Below, piece by piece: positions 16,178-51,541 of a stretch of DNA of 64,000 bases (its first letter is position 1; each line of letters opens with the position of its first letter). The position numbers were made by a program, and so were the translations under genes. A model generated the notes under the pieces. That model was not told the DNA's origin. It saw only the letters and a list, made by a program, of their open reading frames with translations, and did no database searches. This stretch comes from a virus (taxonomy: Duplodnaviria > Caudoviricetes): the IMG/VR virus record IMGVR_UViG_3300021387_000661, positions 96,001 through 160,000 of that record. One strand, written 5' to 3'.

Positions 16178-16237
16178 AAATAAGTAAAAATTATTTTCAT
16201 AAATACCATATAAAATATATAAGAAAATCATTTGAAA

Positions 16238-18199
16238 ATGAAAGAGAAGAAACTATTGATAGTAGAACGCTCTAATGCTCCACTTAATTATTCAGTGGAA
16301 CAGGCATTGAATGAAAACAATGAACACAGCGATTCTATAGTATTAACTGGACTTTTCACATCATTCAATACTAAAAACCGTAACGGCAGAATTTATGAGT
16401 CTGCTGATTTCCTTCCACATGTTGAGGCATTGAGGGAACAGATTGAAAGTAAGAGACTTCTTGGTGAGTTGGATCATCCACATGGATTTGAAATCTCACT
16501 TGGTAATGTTTCTCATGTTGTTGAAAGTCTTGAATTTGACCCACAACAGAATGCTATTGTAGGTAAGATTAGACTCCTTAATACTACTGCTGGTAAGGAA
16601 GCACAGGCACTTGTAAGAGATGGTATTCCATTGAATATCTCATCAAGGGCTGCTGGTACTGTGGATGAATCTGGACATGTTAAACTCCAGCAGTTGTTTA
16701 CATATGACCTTGTTGCAGACCCTGGTTTTGCAAATGCACAGCTTAAGAGGGTTAATGAGTCATATGGATTTGGTGATGATGATAATATTGACATCTATGA
16801 TATTTCAGAAGATGCCAATACAGAGTTGGATCCACAGGTGACCAAGACTGCCGATTATGCAGAACCACAGGCACAGAAGAATGAAGATACATTAAAAAAT
16901 ACAAATATGGAAGACAATAATAATGAATTCATCCAATATGGTGATTTCCAGAAGTACAGTGAACATCTGTCAGAGATTGTCGGTGAACTCCAGTCTGCCA
17001 TTTCTAACATCAAGGATGAGTTAATTAGTTATAAGGAGAAGGGTGGTGAAACTCCTACCCAGACCTTTGATGCTGCTAATATTGATAATTCAATGATTGC
17101 AGACCTTGTTGCAAAAGAGGTTGCAAGGATTACCGGTGAAGGTGCTGCTGTTGTTGGCGGTACAGATGCAAAGGCAGATACTGCTGCTCTTGAATCAAAA
17201 TTAGCAGAGATTGAAGAGAAGTATAACAATCTTAAGGCATACACTAATTATCTTGCTGAAACTCTTGACAAGTCTATTATTCATCAGGATTATATTGCTG
17301 ATGAGGCAAACAAGGTTATTGAACATAACAATTATCTTGCTGAAAGTATGAATAAGATGATTGGTCATCAGGATTATCTTGCAGAGAAGATGAATCAGAT
17401 GATTGCACATCAGGATTATCTTGCTGAAAATATCAATGATACTATTTCTTATCAGAACTATGTGGCAGAAATGTTGGATAAGTCTATTGACTATTCAAAT
17501 ATGCTTGCTGAGGAACAGAACAAGAGTATTGCCCATAATGATTACCTTGCAGAGAAGATGAATCAGATGATTGAACATCAGGATTACATTGTTGAGGAAG
17601 TTAATAAGATTGGTGGTAATGTCCTTGAAGAGAACAAGACAGAAGACACAAAGTCAGAAGAAACTCCTGCTGAAAATGTTAATGAAAACAATGAAGTAAA
17701 GACAGAGGAAACTCCTGTTGAGGAAAACAAGACAGAAGATACAAAGTCAGAAGAAACTCCTGTTGAAAAGTTTGATACAAAGGCATACCAGACAGCACTT
17801 ACTGAAAAACTTGATGCTATCCTTGCTGCTGCAAAGGCACAGTATGCTGAAGCAAAGAGACTTGAGGAAGAGGCAATTAAGGAATCAAAGAAGAATGTTG
17901 ATACAAAGAACTTCACACTTATCAACTATATGCCTGAAAGACTCCAGGAAAGATGGTCAAAACTTTCTGATGAGAGAAAGCAGGAAATTCTTGCAGAGTC
18001 CAAAATGTTTGTAATTAGTAATGAAGCAAGTGCAGTTTATTTCTGGAACACACGTGATTTCAGAGACAAGCAGGTAGAACTTCAGAAGATTGATGAATCT
18101 GCTGTTGCACAACCAAATGCCATCAATGAAAATACTGTTTCTGAAGAAAGGCTCAATGCAATGAAAGAGCAGATTCAGAAAAGAATGAGGAGATGGTAA
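16238..18199 (+). CDS. Prohead protease (T4 gp21-like) fused to scaffold/core-like coiled coil
   Basis: KNRNGRIY, LGELDHP, ISSRAAG and TYDLVADPGF, followed by a long repeated helical tail. Late motif at 16198-16205. Confidence 0.9.
   Translation: MKEKKLLIVERSNAPLNYSVEQALNENNEHSDSIVLTGLFTSFNTKNRNGRIYESADFLPHVEALREQIESKRLLGELDHPHGFEISLGNVSHVVESLEFDPQQNAIVGKIRLLNTTAGKEAQALVRDGIPLNISSRAAGTVDESGHVKLQQLFTYDLVADPGFANAQLKRVNESYGFGDDDNIDIYDISEDANTELDPQVTKTADYAEPQAQKNEDTLKNTNMEDNNNEFIQYGDFQKYSEHLSEIVGELQSAISNIKDELISYKEKGGETPTQTFDAANIDNSMIADLVAKEVARITGEGAAVVGGTDAKADTAALESKLAEIEEKYNNLKAYTNYLAETLDKSIIHQDYIADEANKVIEHNNYLAESMNKMIGHQDYLAEKMNQMIAHQDYLAENINDTISYQNYVAEMLDKSIDYSNMLAEEQNKSIAHNDYLAEKMNQMIEHQDYIVEEVNKIGGNVLEENKTEDTKSEETPAENVNENNEVKTEETPVEENKTEDTKSEETPVEKFDTKAYQTALTEKLDAILAAAKAQYAEAKRLEEEAIKESKKNVDTKNFTLINYMPERLQERWSKLSDERKQEILAESKMFVISNEASAVYFWNTRDFRDKQVELQKIDESAVAQPNAINENTVSEERLNAMKEQIQKRMRRW
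17245..17610 (+). repeat. Degenerate 42-nt (14-aa) tandem repeats HQDYLAEKMNQMIA in scaffold region
   Basis: About 8 imperfect copies visible in protein and DNA (CATCAGGATTATCTTGC). Confidence 0.8.
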
Positions 18200-43725: not shown

Positions 43726-44316
43726 ATGGAAACAAAGGTTAGACGTGTTTTTATTGAAGATGGTTCTTTTGTCATTGAAGAACCAATCAATGTCTTTGAC
43801 AAGAAGTGTCTGGGTGAATGTTGTTTGAAATGTAAATACTCTGAACTTTTATCATATAGAAGTCCAAATGGAATCGGGTGTTGGAGGGTGTCTGATGTGT
43901 GTGGTGAAGGAGACCACAGGTGGTGTATTGACAATGGAAATGAATTCAAATGTACTGATTGGATTGACAAAGAAGCAAAACTTACTCCAAATCTTGATTT
44001 CTGGGTATGCAGGTGTGATTGGGATGATTATTTTGACTTCAGGATTATTGCAGATTATGGAAGAGGACATGTGAGAGTTTCTTTTTATCAAGATGAGATA
44101 ATCATATCTGACTTGTTTGTCAGGGTGGATAAAAGAGGGGAAAGATATGGTACTGCACTTTTGGATTATGTTGATGAACTGGTACAGAAGTTTGGTAAAG
44201 GAAAACAGGCAAGCATATCTGCATTGACTAATTGGGAGAAGGAATGGTATACCAGAAGAGGATATAAGATTATAGATAAATTAGATAAAGGAAAATATAA
44301 TTATGTTGAAGAATAA
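43726..44316 (+). CDS. Cys-rich protein with C-terminal GNAT acetyltransferase domain
   Basis: LFVRVDKRGERYGTALL and WYTRRGY. Confidence 0.65.
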   Translation: METKVRRVFIEDGSFVIEEPINVFDKKCLGECCLKCKYSELLSYRSPNGIGCWRVSDVCGEGDHRWCIDNGNEFKCTDWIDKEAKLTPNLDFWVCRCDWDDYFDFRIIADYGRGHVRVSFYQDEIIISDLFVRVDKRGERYGTALLDYVDELVQKFGKGKQASISALTNWEKEWYTRRGYKIIDKLDKGKYNYVEE

Positions 44317-44722: not shown

Positions 44723-44755
44723 CATAAATACTGAATAAGAATATATTATATTATT

Positions 44756-45111
44756 ATGGAAACTGTAAAAAAAACTTTAAAGAATTCTCAAATGGTAATC
44801 AATCTAATAAATTGTTAATAGATTTATATGATGCTGTTGATGGATTGGTTGCTGATAAATTTACATTCTTGGATTTTGACCATGATGGAATGGGTTTAAT
44901 AACAACTATTGAACTTGATGATGATGAAGAAATTTATTGCATTATTAAAAAATATGAAGATGAAGGTCCACAAAGAGTAGATAAAATTAATGTTCAATAT
45001 AATTTGTCAAAACCGGGCGGTGTATTATTTTCAATTGATGGTGGTGGATATATTCCAGTTGAAAATATTGTCATTGACCAAGAATTGATAGATAATATTA
45101 AGAATTTATAG
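44756..45111 (+). CDS. Probable internal head protein, frame broken at an A8 tract (or TTG start at 44812)
   Basis: Late motif at 44723. ATG at 44756 joins the 44812 frame by a -1 shift at A8 (44767-44774), giving METVKKNFKEF. Confidence 0.55.
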
Positions 45112-45119
45112 AAAAGAGT

Positions 45120-45440
45120 ATGGTAAAGACATTTAAAGAATTCATAAAAGAATCCCATACCATCCAAGTTGATTTGGATAAGGAGACTGTAACTGATGTG
45201 GAGTTGTTTGATAATGGTGATGCAAACTATTATTTCACAACTGATGAACCTCTTCCTGATAACAGTGCTACAATGGAGGCATTCCTGGAGATGGTTGACA
45301 ATACAGATGAGAGTATTGAATGGGATTATGATGGAAGCCAGGCATTTGGTAAGATGAGAAATGGGAGAACCATACAGATAGATGCTGGTGGTGATGGAGA
45401 TTTTACACACCATCTGGTCAGTGTTACAATAGTTAAATGA
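45120..45440 (+). CDS. Probable internal head protein
   Basis: N-terminus MVKTFKEFIKES resembles the T4 capsid-targeting sequence. Confidence 0.65.
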   Translation: MVKTFKEFIKESHTIQVDLDKETVTDVELFDNGDANYYFTTDEPLPDNSATMEAFLEMVDNTDESIEWDYDGSQAFGKMRNGRTIQIDAGGDGDFTHHLVSVTIVK

Positions 45441-45466
45441 AAGTGAGGCAAGTTCCTCACTTTTTT
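45440..45466 (+). terminator. Repeated terminator family, copy 2
   Basis: AAAGTGAGG-CAAGTT-CCTCACTTT plus T-run. Confidence 0.8.
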
Positions 45467-45662
45467 CATACTCCATAAATACCTTGTATATTGAATTTTA
45501 AAATTACAGGTTATGTTACCTGCCTAAATTTGGTTTGAAAGAGTGGAGAATTTTCTTCACTTTTTTGTTGTTTTATTTGGAAATGTAAGAAAATCAAATT
45601 ATCTTTGTAATTGTAAAATACCCATAAATACATTATACACTTAATTTATAAAGATATAGTAT

Positions 45663-48600
45663 ATGTTAAAACCAAGAACATTTAAGGAGTTCTTAGCCAG
45701 ACTTAAAAATTTTTCTATTATTGAAGAGTCTTTTGCTGATAATGGTGAGTCCAAATTATATAATAAGATTCTTAATATCAGAAATACAAGATGTTTGGTT
45801 ATCAATGATGTGACTCTTGCACAAAAAATAGCTAAAAGAAATAAAGTCATTTGTATATATTTCAATAATGATATTCCAAAAGAACAATTGGAAGGAGATG
45901 CTATATGTGAGTATGTAAAACTTGATGTTGTTGATAGACATGCAAGTGACAATATGATTGAAGGCATCAAGTCTATTGTCTCAAAATACAACAACAAATC
46001 ATTTGATTATATCATTAGTGTGGGGTTGAAACCAGGAGAATCAGGTATGGATTATCTTGGTGTCTCATATTTTAACTATGAACTTTTGACAGCTGGTGCA
46101 TTTGAGGCAGGTATTACCAGTTTCATATCAATTGATGATATGGATGTATATGTGTCATTTGATAAAGAAGTTGAAAAGAATTATGGTCAGGGTGATGACA
46201 CAAAAAAAGGTTCTCATGTTCATATGATAGGTAAGATAGAGAATGGTATCTGGAATGGTCTTTATGGTTCAAGTTTTTCTATTTCTGAACATGAACTTGT
46301 TGAACCAAAAGAAAATTTAGATGATAGTGATAATAAACCAATTGGTGAAAATGGTGACATTATCTATGGTGAGACTGCTGATCCTGTGATTTATGCATTC
46401 GAAACAGATATTATGAATAGTATCTTACCAGATGATGAAACTGCTCTTAAAGTTGGTGATACCAATAGAGATATTGATGTTAGAATGAAAGAGTGGGGAA
46501 AACCTGGATATTACCCTGGTCTTGTACCAAAAGGACATTGGTCTGCTGTACTTGATGGGTTTGGTCCGGCTTTGGATGGTAAGATTTTCAGAGACAAATC
46601 TGTTCACAAGTTTCTGGTAAAGAAAGGGTTTGACAACATAAAGAAATTTGAGGTTGAAGGTAAGGTAGACATGCTTGGAAGACCTATTTATTATTCTAAT
46701 GAGTTTTTCAAGAATTGTACTGTTAAAGATGTTGAAGATGCTATAAATGAATTGAAACAGGCAATTTCTGATGGTAAAAATTCTATCATAAAGAAATTGA
46801 AAGATTTAAAGAAAAAAGAGAAAAATAATGTTATAATGCCTTCTCATCATAAACCTGATATGTTTACTCCAAGAGAACTTCAAAGTCAGGTTATTGATAA
46901 TTTTGAAAAAAGAATTCTTGAGACAAAACCAGGAGAACCAGTAGAGATGCTTATGTATGCAGTGATGAGGTTTGGTAAAACCTTTGTTGCTTGTGAGTGT
47001 GTGAGGTCATTATGTGGTAAAAGAAAGGGTGGAAAATTCATAATGGTTACATCTGCAAAAGTAGATGTCAAGAATGAATGGATGGAACAGGTCAATCCTT
47101 ATAAACTATATGAAAATATAGATATGTATGATGTAGAAGGATTGAAGAAAATGCTTGAAAATAAACAACCATTTGAAAGAAAAAATGGAAAAACATATAA
47201 AGATATTCAAGAATATTTCCAGGATTTCCCAGAAAAGAACATAATGTTGTTTGCATCTCTTCAGGATTTGAATGGTTCCTTGGATAAGAAGGGTATGAAA
47301 GAAAATCATAAGTATTTCTATGATACACCAATAGATATGCTTATCATTGATGAAGCACATTATGGTGCTCAATCACAAAAATATGGAAGACAGACTGGTC
47401 AGAGTTTAGAAGGCATGCTTACTCTTATGCCAAAGATGAAGTTTAAAAGTGATGCTGTAAAACTTCATCTTTCAGGTACTCCATATAAACTTATCAATGA
47501 TGGTATCTTCCAAAAAAAGGACATTATTGCCAGCTTCAGTTTTGCTGATTTAATGGATGCAAAGCAGAAGTGGATTGATGATAATATGGACAAAATTAAT
47601 GCTGGTGAGATGAAATATTCAGACAATCCATATTTTGGTATTCCAGAAATGCTTCAATATGGATACAATCTTGATTTATTCCAGTTGAAAAAATACAAGG
47701 AAGATGGATTGGATTATTCTCTTGATAGATTGTTCAGTGTTGTCAATGTTGAAGGTAAGAGAGTATTTCAATATGAAGATGATATTTATAACCTGTTTGC
47801 TGCAATAGATGGTAGTCAGAAAAATGAAAATGTCATTGAAATACTTGATCTACCAGAAGTAAAAGAAGGTAAATTATGTAGACATATTCTAGCTGCACTT
47901 CCTTCAAAGGATAGTTGTGATGTGATGGAAGAGTTTCTTACTAAATGTAAGAAGGAGACAAAAGACAAAGATGGTAATGTAAGACCTGCATTGAAAAATC
48001 TTGGTCTATATAAAGTTATCAATGTTGCCGGTAAAGAAGAGGGTGTTGAAGAGTGTGAAGAGGTTAAAAGAATGATTGCCAAGGAAGACAAGGCAAACAA
48101 CAAGACTATTACACTTACTGTTGATATGATGCTTACAGGTGTCAGTGTGCGAGAGTGGGATTGTATGTTCTATATGAAAGATGGTAAGTCTGCCCAGGCA
48201 TATGATCAGGCGAAATTTAGAATCCAGACACCATATAAGAAGAAAGCATTGGTATTTGATATTGGTGATGATTTGAAAAATGTTGATATTGCTATGGATG
48301 AAAAAGGTGATCCAGATTATGAAGTTATTGACAATAAGAGGCAGACTGTATTTGTTGATTTTTCTGCCAAGAGAATTTATGAACTTACCAGTGAAAGGTA
48401 TCATGCTCAATTAAGGGCAGATGCTGCTGCTGGTAAGAAAATATATGAACCTGTTCTTGATAAGGATGGTAATCCTGTTCTGGATGAAAATGGAGAACCT
48501 AAAAAGGTAGAAATCCCTGTTGATGAGGCAAATTCAAGTGCATATATCAAATATATGGCAAAGAGAGAAAAACCATATCTTCCTATTCTTGTTAATGAAA

Positions 48601-51050
48601 TTGGAAGTAAGAAATTGAAGAGGCAGGAGTCAAATAACATTATGGATGAATTTGCAAAATATTTTGCAAAGGACTTTGAAAATATGTCACCAGAAGAACT
48701 TCTATCCAAGCAGAAATGGTATATGCCAACAGAAGAGATGTTTGAAAAGATGGCAGGTATGCCTGATACATATGAAAGAAAAGGTGGGCACCCTTATATT
48801 AAGAAACAGGTATTTGGTGATGAGCAGAATCAAGATTCTGTTGATGGAACTACTCCATCAGAAGAAACTAATACTGATGATGGAAGTGGAAGTTCTTCTA
48901 AATCTAAACCAGCAACAAAACCATCTCTTACTATAGAAGAGAAAATTGCCAAACTCAAAAAGTATTACACTATCTGTGATACATTGATGAGAAATATCTA
49001 CATATATCTTGTTACCAGACTTGATAATGTTAAGATTCATGACTTCCATGATTTGTGCCATGACTCTATGCGTGCAGAGAATACTCAAAACTATGATATA
49101 ATTGTATCCATCTTCACAGATAAAAATCCATATGAAATGTCTTTTGACCAGAAGAAGAAGATTGTTGATGAGGTCAGAAATACTATTCAGGAATGGGTAG
49201 ATTTATATTTGAAGAAGGATCCGGAACATAAACTTCTTGAAACAATTCAGAACAAGATTGTTGCTATGTCATACAAATATGGTGAGGATAGAAAGGACTA
49301 TGACAAGATTAAGAGTGTCCTGAAAGACTTCACCAGAGGAAAAATTTCTGATACAGAAATCATTGGTGATGATGATACTCTGGCAGAGAAACTTTTTGAG
49401 AATGTTGTTATATTTAATAAGAAGGATAAGATACTTGACTGCTATGGTAGTAAGGTTGGTGAATATGCTTGGTATCTGGCAAACAAGTGGGAACACAAGG
49501 ATAAGTTCAGTATTGATAACTATTACATTATTTGTAGAAAAGGTATGATTGCTGAACTGTGTAAAGTACCTCTGTTGATTCTTGCCAGAAAGGAGGGTAT
49601 CCTTGGTTATAAGAATCAAAAGGGTATAAATGATTGGTTAAATGCTCATATTCTTGTGTTTGATCCTATGAATGAAGAAAATGTAGTTGCTGTTCCATCT
49701 AAGACTGAAAATCAGGAAGAGAATACTGTAACTACATCTTCTGAAAATTCAAAGGTTGAAATGGATTATAATAAGTTTGAGACCTTCTCTGAATTTATGA
49801 AACTCATAAATGAGGGTGTGGATCCTGATGCTGAAAGAAAGGAGAAAAGAGAAGCAAGTAAATATGAAAAAGCAGGAGGACTCTATAAACTCAAACAAGC
49901 AATACAAAAAAAATGGCCAGAAATGAAATGGAGTTTAGTTGTTGGGAATCCACCATATGGTGATAGGGAGCATGGTGGTGGAATGAATTTACATTTACAA
50001 ATAATGAAAACTGTACTTGATTTATGTACAGATAAATTGACATTTATTATGCCAAGTAAACCAATAATTAAACAATTGGAAGACCCTTGGTATTCAATAC
50101 TTGTAAATGCAGTTTGTACCAATATTACTGTTGTAAGTAAAAATATGTTCCCAAATACAACTATGGAAAATACTGCAATTTATTATTGTGATAGAACAAT
50201 TCCAGAAGATCAAATAGAAGATTCATATGATAAAAAATTAGATGTTGATGATAGAATATATGATATTTTACCTGATGTTGGAAAACTTTTTGTAGATAAA
50301 ATGGGTAAAATGTCTTCACTAAATATATTTTCAACATATAAATTGAGTAAAAAGAATGAAGAAAGTATCTTGAATGGAATAAAGAAAAAAATAGATAATA
50401 ATAATACTAAATATTATCTTAATGTTAGTCGTTCAGGTGTAAAACCTGGTGATGGTGCTCAAATATGGTTTTCAGGTACACTTGAAAAAGAAAATGTTAA
50501 AACAGCAGATGAAGAAAAAAAGTTTATTTTAACACATAGAAAAACCAAAAACATTATCATTTGCCCAACAAAAGAATATGGCGAGAACTTAAAGAATTTG
50601 ATGATAATTGGTAAAGTTTTAAGATATTCATTGTGGCTTACACAGGTTAAACAGGATATTTTGCAAGCACAATTTAAGTATGTACCAGATATAGATTATA
50701 CAATCATAGATACTGATGAAAAACTTCTTTCAGAATGTGGATTCACATTGGATGAGATAGAAAAAGTGATGAACTATCTCAAAGACTTTGACTTCACACA
50801 AAACAGGAATGATATGGTAAGAAATGCAGGTGTGAAAAGTAAACCAGACACCTCTCCATCCAGTTCAGAAGAATCTCCAAAATCTTACCTTGAACGGTTG
50901 AAGGAAACATATTCTAATCCAAGTAAGAAGATTCAAAAAAGAAGAGAAGAATTGGAATCAGAGTTTGCACATGCCAAGGAATATGGTAAAACTGAATATG
51001 ATGACTTCTGGGAATGGTTGGCATATGAGAAAATTCCTGAAGAAGACTAA
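45663..51050 (+). CDS. Fused GIY-YIG/T5orf172-like nuclease, SF2 helicase and N6-adenine methyltransferase (restriction-modification-like)
   Basis: IYAF..LKVGDT.R.I..R..EW, MRFGKT, IIDEAH, LSGTP, MLTGVS and YDQA.FR, then ILDCYGSKVGEY and GNPPY. Late motif at 45623-45630. Confidence 0.8.
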   Translation: MLKPRTFKEFLARLKNFSIIEESFADNGESKLYNKILNIRNTRCLVINDVTLAQKIAKRNKVICIYFNNDIPKEQLEGDAICEYVKLDVVDRHASDNMIEGIKSIVSKYNNKSFDYIISVGLKPGESGMDYLGVSYFNYELLTAGAFEAGITSFISIDDMDVYVSFDKEVEKNYGQGDDTKKGSHVHMIGKIENGIWNGLYGSSFSISEHELVEPKENLDDSDNKPIGENGDIIYGETADPVIYAFETDIMNSILPDDETALKVGDTNRDIDVRMKEWGKPGYYPGLVPKGHWSAVLDGFGPALDGKIFRDKSVHKFLVKKGFDNIKKFEVEGKVDMLGRPIYYSNEFFKNCTVKDVEDAINELKQAISDGKNSIIKKLKDLKKKEKNNVIMPSHHKPDMFTPRELQSQVIDNFEKRILETKPGEPVEMLMYAVMRFGKTFVACECVRSLCGKRKGGKFIMVTSAKVDVKNEWMEQVNPYKLYENIDMYDVEGLKKMLENKQPFERKNGKTYKDIQEYFQDFPEKNIMLFASLQDLNGSLDKKGMKENHKYFYDTPIDMLIIDEAHYGAQSQKYGRQTGQSLEGMLTLMPKMKFKSDAVKLHLSGTPYKLINDGIFQKKDIIASFSFADLMDAKQKWIDDNMDKINAGEMKYSDNPYFGIPEMLQYGYNLDLFQLKKYKEDGLDYSLDRLFSVVNVEGKRVFQYEDDIYNLFAAIDGSQKNENVIEILDLPEVKEGKLCRHILAALPSKDSCDVMEEFLTKCKKETKDKDGNVRPALKNLGLYKVINVAGKEEGVEECEEVKRMIAKEDKANNKTITLTVDMMLTGVSVREWDCMFYMKDGKSAQAYDQAKFRIQTPYKKKALVFDIGDDLKNVDIAMDEKGDPDYEVIDNKRQTVFVDFSAKRIYELTSERYHAQLRADAAAGKKIYEPVLDKDGNPVLDENGEPKKVEIPVDEANSSAYIKYMAKREKPYLPILVNEIGSKKLKRQESNNIMDEFAKYFAKDFENMSPEELLSKQKWYMPTEEMFEKMAGMPDTYERKGGHPYIKKQVFGDEQNQDSVDGTTPSEETNTDDGSGSSSKSKPATKPSLTIEEKIAKLKKYYTICDTLMRNIYIYLVTRLDNVKIHDFHDLCHDSMRAENTQNYDIIVSIFTDKNPYEMSFDQKKKIVDEVRNTIQEWVDLYLKKDPEHKLLETIQNKIVAMSYKYGEDRKDYDKIKSVLKDFTRGKISDTEIIGDDDTLAEKLFENVVIFNKKDKILDCYGSKVGEYAWYLANKWEHKDKFSIDNYYIICRKGMIAELCKVPLLILARKEGILGYKNQKGINDWLNAHILVFDPMNEENVVAVPSKTENQEENTVTTSSENSKVEMDYNKFETFSEFMKLINEGVDPDAERKEKREASKYEKAGGLYKLKQAIQKKWPEMKWSLVVGNPPYGDREHGGGMNLHLQIMKTVLDLCTDKLTFIMPSKPIIKQLEDPWYSILVNAVCTNITVVSKNMFPNTTMENTAIYYCDRTIPEDQIEDSYDKKLDVDDRIYDILPDVGKLFVDKMGKMSSLNIFSTYKLSKKNEESILNGIKKKIDNNNTKYYLNVSRSGVKPGDGAQIWFSGTLEKENVKTADEEKKFILTHRKTKNIIICPTKEYGENLKNLMIIGKVLRYSLWLTQVKQDILQAQFKYVPDIDYTIIDTDEKLLSECGFTLDEIEKVMNYLKDFDFTQNRNDMVRNAGVKSKPDTSPSSSEESPKSYLERLKETYSNPSKKIQKRREELESEFAHAKEYGKTEYDDFWEWLAYEKIPEED

Positions 51051-51072
51051 AGTTTCTTAAGTGATGATGAAG

Positions 51073-51101
51073 AAGATGAGGCATAGTTCCTCATCTTTTT
51101 T
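51073..51101 (+). terminator. Repeated terminator family, copy 3
   Basis: AAGATGAGG-CATAGTT-CCTCATCTT plus T-run. Confidence 0.8.
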
Positions 51102-51136
51102 GTTATATTTAGGTTAAACTTAAAATTTGTATAATT

Positions 51137-51511
51137 ATGGTAAACAAACTTGAAAAGAAGTACTCAAAAGAATTACAGGAAATGACAGATGAAGAGAAAA
51201 TCTATAATGACTGGGATAAAGAATATGAAGACAGATATATAAAACTTTATAATGCCCTTGAAAAGTTTGTTAAAACAACAACAGTTAATAAAAAAGGAAA
51301 AAGAATACCTCTTATTGACAGTGTTGATGGAAAAAAGGTTAAAATTAAAGGATTAGATGGATATCTTGTTCCTTTATCAAAAGAGGAAAAGTTAATATGG
51401 AAAAAATATGAAAAATTGGAAAAATTGATGGATTTATTACTTCAATATGATGCTGAATTTGATTATAAGTATTTTGGTACAAAAAACAAACTTTTATATC
51501 ATATAAAGTAA
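51137..51511 (+). CDS. Hypothetical protein flanked by identical terminators
   Basis: 124-aa AT-rich ORF. Confidence 0.6.
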   Translation: MVNKLEKKYSKELQEMTDEEKIYNDWDKEYEDRYIKLYNALEKFVKTTTVNKKGKRIPLIDSVDGKKVKIKGLDGYLVPLSKEEKLIWKKYEKLEKLMDLLLQYDAEFDYKYFGTKNKLLYHIK

Positions 51512-51541
51512 AAGATGAGGCATAGTTCCTCATCTTTTTTT
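51511..51541 (+). terminator. Repeated terminator family, copy 4 (identical to copy 3)
   Basis: AAGATGAGGCATAGTTCCTCATCTTTTTT. Confidence 0.8.

Follow-up and report, generated by a model that had tools for sequence, protein, structure and literature searches.

Several bacteriophages are known to deliver proteins from the virus head into the host together with their DNA, including the internal proteins of T4, the Dar proteins of P1, and the RNA polymerase of N4. In laboratory work, the targeting tag of T4 also serves to bring foreign proteins into capsids. Restriction-modification (R-M) enzymes are classic host weapons. Here we analyze a gene for a 1795-residue protein that appears, from its sequence, to join two known kinds of protein: head cargo tagged with a capsid targeting sequence (CTS) and R-M enzymes resembling those of Type ISP. 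The gene lies in a 64,000-nucleotide stretch of DNA, hereafter called the window, that corresponds to bases 96001–160000 of the 344,746-bp virus record IMGVR_UViG_3300021387_000661 (34.7% G+C). An earlier note on this DNA had proposed that the protein is a bacterial-type R-M enzyme that is packaged in the virion and injected at entry. The leader at the N terminus of the protein, a gp21-type protease encoded in the same window, a promoter motif shared with structural genes, and the untagged state of the bacterial forms of the enzyme agree with this proposal, while a tandem host-type promoter and an arginine at the canonical cut position do not.

Relationship to described systems

The T4 CTS, which has the sequence MKTYQEFIAE, is cut once and brings any protein fused to it into the head (PMC8442874; PMC3012670). 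A nuclease is among the foreign proteins that it has loaded into active virions (PMC3012670). The window protein resembles the T4 internal proteins in its leader of ~10 residues, which follows the form M-x-K-x-F-K/E-E-F-I/V-x-E in this phage and M-K-T-Y-Q-E-F-I-A-E in T4. As in T4, a putative protease site that ends in Glu comes after the leader, the phage encodes an S77 protease and a gp23-type capsid protein, and the leader occurs on unrelated proteins. Unlike the small basic internal proteins of T4, the window cargo is a 205-kDa multi-domain enzyme whose packaging is predicted, whose putative cut site is displaced to residues 19–21, and which continues from its leader into a folded domain of 145 residues and an acidic linker.

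P1 DarB, one of the polyvalent proteins, combines an LPD36 domain, an EcoKI/TaqI-like methyltransferase, and a C-terminal SWI2/SNF2 ATPase (Iyer et al, 2017; PMC5512222). DarB and the window protein are both very large phage proteins with an N6-adenine DNA methyltransferase and an SF2 ATPase, and DarB is found in the P1 head and acts on incoming DNA. However, the domains of the window protein are ordered nuclease, ResIII-type helicase, and methyltransferase, whereas the methyltransferase of DarB is N-terminal to its ATPase, and P1 does not use a T4-type CTS. A tblastn search of 50,697 phage records, made without a profile comparison with DarB, gave no sequence match to P1 at E ≤ 1e-5, the only six matches being to Lak and gut phages, and we treat DarB as a functional analogy only.

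The Type ISP enzymes LlaGI and LlaBIII, like the window protein, carry a nuclease, an SF2 translocase, a coupler, a gamma-class N6-adenine methyltransferase, and a recognition domain in one chain. In a predicted model, the C-terminal 666 residues of the window protein align with LlaGI (Z 14.8 over 285 residues) and LlaBIII (Z 14.1 over 391 residues). In contrast to the Mrr PD-(D/E)xK nuclease of these enzymes, the nuclease-like domain of the window protein is of the T5orf172 type (GIY-YIG clan), its sequence has no match among the solved chains, and the fold scores are tied with those for CamA, DrdV, and MmeI. True homologs are found instead in a bacterial family of ~1330-residue T5orf172-ResIII-Eco57I proteins, with 32% identity over 758 residues, the same domain order, and the same invariant motifs. 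This family, which matches the PADLOC profile REase_MTase_IIG, is chromosomal and present in about 500 species genomes, mainly of Bacteroidota. Its members differ from the window protein in starting at T5orf172, without the leader, the Rossmann-like domain, or the acidic linker.

The protein begins with a leader that resembles the T4 capsid targeting sequence

The gene occupies positions 45663–51050 of the + strand, where it is the sole long open reading frame (ORF). It is present in a single copy, with no paralog found in the genome. The earlier note was correct in its coordinates, its domain list, and its estimate of the N-terminal extension. The N terminus reads MLKPRTFKEFLARLKNFSIIEES. Residues 1–22 (45663–45728, + strand) form the leader, in which RTFKEF resembles the T4 CTS and the first (L/I)xE sequence is IIE at residues 19–21; in the structural model this region is disordered apart from a short helix.

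We searched the genome in six frames with the pattern [FY]x[EDSN][FYW][ILVFT]x(1-2)E and counted a match as N-terminal when it fell within eight codons of an ATG that was itself near a preceding stop codon. The search gave 37 matches, with 12 of them N-terminal where 2.2 were expected (P ~9e-7). The same leader is found on at least 11 unrelated small ORFs of the genome, with examples that read MVKTFKEFIKE (window position 45120), MIKKFEEFINE, MIKSFKEFVNE, MIKKFSEFTNE, and MAYIKKFSEFIKE. The late-type promoter motif CATAAATA, described below, lies at −13 to −40 in 5 of the 11 good leader ORFs, compared with ~13% of all called genes.

In the long proteins homologous to the window protein, no other part is maintained as strongly as the leader. 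Residues 1–11 are the best-conserved stretch of the family, with a mean majority frequency of 0.73, while the helicase reaches 0.60 and the T5orf172 domain 0.57, and the leader is kept among proteins just ~30% identical overall. Nearly every family member has an (L/I)xE sequence at residues 12–13, at 27–32, or at both positions, and in most homologs the second site takes the form (L/I)(N/T)E at ~27–32. A site directly at the end of the leader occurs in the small leader proteins and, as FLNE or FLVE, in a number of homologs. On a 233-kb contig (L001), a 1927-residue homolog starts with MLNLKSFEDFLNE followed by Ser, and the ORFs ahead of it start with MVLKFEEFINE and MVKNVLDFDEFVQE. Three further sites, ISE, LVE, and IGE, lie in the acidic linker of the window protein. 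We considered whether cleavage there could make the whole extension a propeptide, but this idea is unsupported, as the three sites are not conserved in homologs.

The presumed processing enzyme is a gp21-type prohead protease encoded at 16232–18199 (+ strand; Peptidase_S77, 1.4e-8). Both related contigs that were checked also encode an S77 protease of the same type and of similar length (~655 residues). In addition, the window encodes a T4 gp20-type portal (Portal_T4, 1.9e-70), a gp23-type capsid protein (Gp23, 6.7e-36), and a tail sheath protein. The nearest relative of the capsid protein is from an uncultured 462-kb phage (44% identity), followed by those of the Prevotella Lak megaphages (33–34%). 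Because of these gp20-, gp21-, and gp23-type genes and capsid relatives, we assign the window to a huge phage that is uncultured and distantly related to T4. In the capsid protein, LNE at residues 50–52 is followed by Ser, and this is likely to be its maturation site judging from the sequence. The C-terminal half of the prohead protease contains a run of LAE, LEE, and VNE sequences, with six LAE at residues 341–587, and looks like a fused scaffold-like tail full of the protease's own putative cut sites.

The N-terminal extension is confined to the phage forms

Homologs of the window protein fall into two length classes, with 30 long proteins of 1186–1936 residues and 47 short proteins of ~1200–1600 residues. 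Some of the long forms are encoded on contigs of 200–420 kb. All 30 open with a leader of the MLNLKSFEDF type, which in the window protein reads MLKPRTFKEF, although two of the 30 are apparently cut or mis-started. One of them, P0002, is 95% identical to the window protein. The short forms open directly with GRVEPHIYAF...KVGDTYR, which aligns at residue ~240 of the window protein, and the alignment to bacterial homologs begins at residue ~231–233. Homology to the bacterial family extends over the nuclease-like and helicase parts and the NPPY methyltransferase, with a BLASTP E-value of 5e-92 to the homolog P0066 and E-values of 1e-48 to 1e-87 to the ~1300–1600-residue forms. When prokaryotes were scanned with a single genome for each species, 505 short-form relatives were identified, most of them from Bacteroidota and the others from groups that include Campylobacterota and Clostridia. 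In 77 of 77 scorable bacterial loci, only 10–49 open codons precede the IYAF motif, which leaves no room for an extension. The same range of upstream open codons was found for short forms on small viral contigs (8 of 8). The check proposed in the earlier note, whether bacterial homologs lack the extension, therefore favors its proposal, and a leader in chromosomal homologs, which the note had named as a refutation, was not found in these loci.

The Lak-A2 homolog, which is 1439 residues long when TAG is read as Gln, is intermediate between the two classes: its extension of ~90 residues includes LNE at 18–20 and an acidic linker but not the extra domain. A scan of 1.84 billion representatives for the tagged extension as a portable module recovered this family only, together with two short proteins that are probably truncated or chimeric, judging from their sequences. 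We therefore rejected the possibility that the extension is a module carried by other cargo, as it is confined to its own family. Scanning viral contigs with a single protein as the query gave no loci, whereas a query built from the alignment did find them. Together, the sequence comparisons show an extension of ~230 residues, comprising the leader, the (L/I)xE site, the Rossmann-like domain, and the acidic linker, that belongs only to a clade of huge T4-like phages.

The protein has the layout of a single-chain restriction-modification enzyme

Downstream of the leader, residues 32–175 (45756–46187, + strand) form a Rossmann-like alpha/beta domain that lacks a Gly-rich cofactor loop and is found in the phage clade only. 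It is followed by the acidic linker at residues 176–238 (46188–46376), which is predicted to be disordered. An AlphaFold model of residues 1–408, calculated from a 19-row alignment (mean pLDDT 66), shows residues 1–31 as disordered except for the short helix, residues 32–175 and 240–385 as confidently folded, and residues 176–238 as disordered. Short-chain dehydrogenases and class I methyltransferases tie as the best fold matches for the Rossmann-like domain, at Z ~9–10. With this tie and without a Gly-rich loop, we rejected the idea that the domain is a second methyltransferase; by its model it is a generic Rossmann-like fold.

Residues 240–385 (46380–46817, + strand) form a T5orf172 nuclease-like domain of the GIY-YIG clan, with invariant IYAF, KVGDT, R269, R274, E277, H315, and E347. 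The Arg, Glu, and His expected for a GIY-YIG-type enzyme are invariant in both phage and bacterial forms. Pfam identifies T5orf172 in 3 of 16 bacterial homologs (best 6.2e-6), and in a fold comparison the modeled domain resembles several viral T5orf172 proteins. The designation "GIY-YIG-like" in the earlier note thus has indirect support, through homologs and fold, but not by Pfam on the protein's own segment.

An SF2 helicase or translocase of the ResIII type spans residues ~400–905 (46860–48377, + strand), with GKT at 438–440, DEAH at 563–566, SGTP at 604–607, and motif VI at ~Q849–R853. Pfam places ResIII at 402–608, and PADLOC REase_MTase_IIG matches residues 233–861 (E = 2e-74), beginning at position 15 of the profile, which agrees with an extension of ~230 residues. 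A middle region at residues ~930–1129 (48450–49049) is poorly conserved and partly of low complexity, being rich in Ser, Thr, and Asp. Residues 1130–1470 (49050–50072, + strand) contain a helical coupler and a gamma-class N6-adenine DNA methyltransferase, with the motif I-like sequence LDCYGSKVGE at 1258–1267 and NPPY at 1429–1432, and with a weak Pfam match to Eco57I methylase at 1286–1467. GKT, DEAH, SGTP, and NPPY are invariant across 17 aligned relatives, in keeping with the SF2 and NPPY domains read earlier from the sequence. Within the phage clade the nuclease, helicase, and methyltransferase motifs are all invariant, so that the check on nuclease-site conservation proposed in the earlier note also comes out in its favor.

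Residues 1471–1720 (50073–50822, + strand) form a C-terminal domain resembling a target-recognition domain. The model of residues 1130–1795 (mean pLDDT 74) gives effectively tied fold matches to CamA (Z 15.2), LlaGI (14.8), DrdV (14.3), LlaBIII (14.1), and MmeI (14.1), followed by BsaXI and M.TaqI. This predicted structure matches a gamma-class N6-adenine DNA methyltransferase with a recognition domain. In the family alignment, the part that follows NPPY (columns ~2100–2698, the C-terminal third) is of at least four unrelated types, as would be expected if the recognition domains differ in specificity. Members that are otherwise distant have a short Ser/Pro-rich stretch and an acidic tail in common, in mosaic fashion, which suggests that recognition modules have been swapped. 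Neither the protein nor the family profile has a sequence-level match among solved structures, and PHROGs and NCBIfam contain no match to the protein. The domains described above show that the protein is a single-chain enzyme with the Type ISP layout of a nuclease-like domain, SF2 translocase, coupler, gamma-class N6-adenine methyltransferase, and recognition domain.

The gene looks like an insulated unit with a late-type promoter motif

Terminator-like hairpins flank the gene on the + strand, one at 45536–45567, which closes the upstream unit and insulates the gene, and the other at 51064–51106, directly after the stop codon. With a hairpin at each end, the gene looks like a single-gene unit. 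Between the first hairpin and the start codon lies the late-type motif CATAAATA (45623–45630, + strand), in the extended form CATAAATA-nn-TTATA, exactly 32 nt before the ATG as reported earlier. There are 85 copies of CATAAATA in the genome. For 62 of them a called gene starts within the next 80 nt, which is an enrichment of 12-fold, and the distances peak at 25–44 nt before the start; the extended consensus is TTTT-CATAAATA-nn-TTATA. In the window the motif precedes sheath, portal, protease, and tail genes as well as the 1795-residue gene, and the small-gene block at 31.6–45 kb has no copy. The T4 late promoter is TATAAATA, which CATAAATA resembles. The gene therefore carries the promoter motif of the structural genes, which favors the proposal of the earlier note, although a tandem host-type promoter, described below, makes early expression likely too.

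We read the genomic context of the long homologs in L001, in a 411-kb relative (L002), and in Lak-A2. The L001 and L002 homologs have CATAAATA ~30 nt upstream, right after a terminator hairpin, and carry this late-type promoter only. In L002 (6515–17550) the big gene is an insulated late unit with NAD-related genes on one side, assigned by eye as NAMPT-like and NadE-like, and a ligase-like gene on the other.

The region just upstream of the window gene also contains a cassette at 45441–45570 with a hairpin, CATAAATA, a 5′ leader, and ATGTT, which by eye is ~90% identical over ~80 nt to the L001 region upstream of the big gene. The L001 protein behind the similar cassette is only ~30% identical to the window protein, and in the window the cassette is followed by a four-codon frame and then by a terminator. 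The cassette appears to be either what remains of an ancestral gene start or the source of a short late transcript. At the start now used by the 1795-residue gene, the promoter region is a rebuilt one and the leader is a variant.

A model for capsid loading and its alternatives

The properties described above led us to a model in which the enzyme is packed in the virus head by means of its leader, a proposal that we regard as about evenly balanced between right and wrong. The model rests on a leader that is conserved above the other domains of the protein and shared with unrelated proteins, on the presence of an S77 protease, and on the promoter motif of the structural genes. We favor packaging because such a conserved leader is hard to explain otherwise and because the T4 tag is able to load foreign enzymes. 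In the model, the enzyme would be synthesized late from the CATAAATA promoter, bound by its leader to the scaffolding core of the prohead, and trimmed by the gp21-type protease after Glu21 or Glu22. It would then stay in the head, idle for want of ATP, which is plausible because translocation is inferred to need ATP. On infection it would enter the next cell with the DNA and act from time zero. Its task there could be to methylate the arriving genome and patrol it in the manner of DarB, to cut DNA of the host or of rivals that lacks methylation, or to do both. To judge from the invariant nuclease residues, cleavage would matter to this role at entry. Owing to the tandem host-type promoter, the enzyme could also be made early and work in the infected cell, as the upstream sequence suggests.

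The most elaborate form of the model is that a clade of huge T4-like phages of the gut or rumen carries a complete ATP-dependent R-M enzyme in the capsid, loaded by a T4-type tag, their own DNA being methylated before packaging. Within the first seconds of an infection, ahead of any phage gene expression, the enzyme would cut DNA that lacks methylation, be it of the host, a prophage, or a rival phage. We consider this specific scenario unlikely. If capsid loading is correct, the novelty would lie in the natural capture of a whole host-type R-M motor enzyme fitted with a T4-type tag, and the T4-like cargo system would have to accept enzymes of 200 kDa. Phages would have turned a host defense enzyme into an entry weapon or shield, and uncultured huge phages could be searched for injected effectors by means of the leader. 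Because the tagged forms of phages differ so sharply from the untagged ones of bacteria, the idea can be tested directly.

Several observations weigh against capsid loading. At 205 kDa the proposed cargo greatly exceeds the T4 internal proteins in size. Where the short leaders close with Glu the window protein has Arg (EFLAR), making IIE at 19–21 the first usable site. The Rossmann-like domain is not explained by the packaging model. Pfam searches with residues 25–235 and 230–400 alone found no family, so that T5orf172 is not detected directly, and motif I of the methyltransferase is atypical, with GSK in place of GSG. Finally, a complete bipartite promoter of host type (Bacteroidota-like), which the earlier note does not mention, lies at 45575–45607 (+ strand), with ATTTGG at 45575–45580, N19, and TATCTTTG(TA), where TATCTTTG is at 45600–45607. 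Read as ATTTGG-N19-TATCTTTGTA, with TATCTTTGTA starting from 45600, it is a full match to the bipartite consensus 15 nt upstream of the late motif. That consensus, ATTTGG-N17-19-TATCTTTGTA, precedes ~24 other genes, mostly small, at 215–333 kb of the genome, and the genes behind these other copies are probably early. Because a full host-type promoter lies in tandem upstream, early transcription of the 1795-residue gene is likely as well, which would not be expected of a purely late packaged protein. Promoters of Bacteroidota have the form TTTG and TAnnTTTG, which the bipartite consensus shares. This promoter form and the bias of the bacterial homologs toward Bacteroidota point to a Bacteroidota host for the phage.

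An enzyme that works also, or only, inside the cell would be in keeping with the early-type promoter, with the shift of the cut site, with so large a protein, and with the Rossmann-like domain. An enzyme acting only there is a possible explanation that we hold more tentatively than capsid loading. It would be made early from the host-type promoter and again late, would methylate replicating phage DNA, and would cut unmethylated host or superinfecting DNA for host shut-off, nucleotide salvage, or the exclusion of rival phages, with the extension serving in regulation, oligomerization, or localization. A full ATTTGG-N19-TATCTTTGTA of the same form as the ~24 copies before small, probably early genes is what such an enzyme would need, and its enzymatic motifs are all intact. 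The missing canonical Glu of the leader and an extension that is mostly a folded Rossmann-like domain rather than a simple propeptide are also as expected. However, a purely intracellular function does not account for the first 11 residues being the most conserved part of the family, for their likeness to an experimentally defined packaging tag and their occurrence on many unrelated small proteins of the same phages, or for the (L/I)xE site that follows in nearly all members. It also sits poorly with the L001 and L002 homologs, which carry the late-type promoter only.

It is rather improbable that the protein is packaged but acts purely in anti-restriction, in the manner of DarB, by riding on the entering DNA and methylating it against host restriction while T5orf172 binds DNA without cleaving it. 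A packaged methyltransferase-helicase that protects in cis has a precedent in DarB (PMC5512222), the T5orf172 domain was first described as DNA-binding and the fold matches carry that name, and a recognition domain that varies among homologs would suit sequence-specific methylation. Nevertheless, the GIY-YIG-type Arg, Glu, and His are invariant in phage and bacterial forms, the domain order is reversed relative to DarB and the helicase is not of the SNF2 kind, and DNA methylated before packaging needs no re-methylation at entry. Finally, it is scarcely credible that the N-terminal pattern is a functionless by-product of AT-rich codon usage or translation-start preference, since even in a genome of 35% G+C with common Lys, Phe, and Glu codons, 12 of 37 matches are N-terminal against 2.2 expected, the spacing is fixed with a protease-type site at its end, and the pattern is kept in proteins only ~30% identical.

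Neighboring genes

The 106-residue ORF at 45120–45440 (+ strand) begins with the canonical leader MVKTFKEFIKE followed by Ser, and resembles an internal protein. The earlier note had assigned the leader to more than one upstream neighbor, which holds for this ORF but not for the one at 44746–45111, where NFKEF is only in the −1 frame. There, the ATG at 44746 is followed by a run of eight A residues, and the 111-codon frame with NFKEF is in the −1 frame relative to this ATG; no xE site follows the motif. The frame break could result from an error in the homopolymer, from slippage on A-AAA-AAA by the polymerase or the ribosome, or from the decay of a gene of the internal-protein type. Directly upstream of this cluster of leader ORFs, at 43726–44316, is a 196-residue ORF with a GNAT acetyltransferase domain (2.2e-6).

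Downstream of the enzyme gene, a hairpin formed by GATGAGGCATAGTTCCTCATC and a T run occurs twice, at 51064–51106 and 51510–51538, bracketing a 124-residue ORF at 51137–51511. After the first copy comes TTTGTTATATTTA, a further motif that is enriched upstream of genes.

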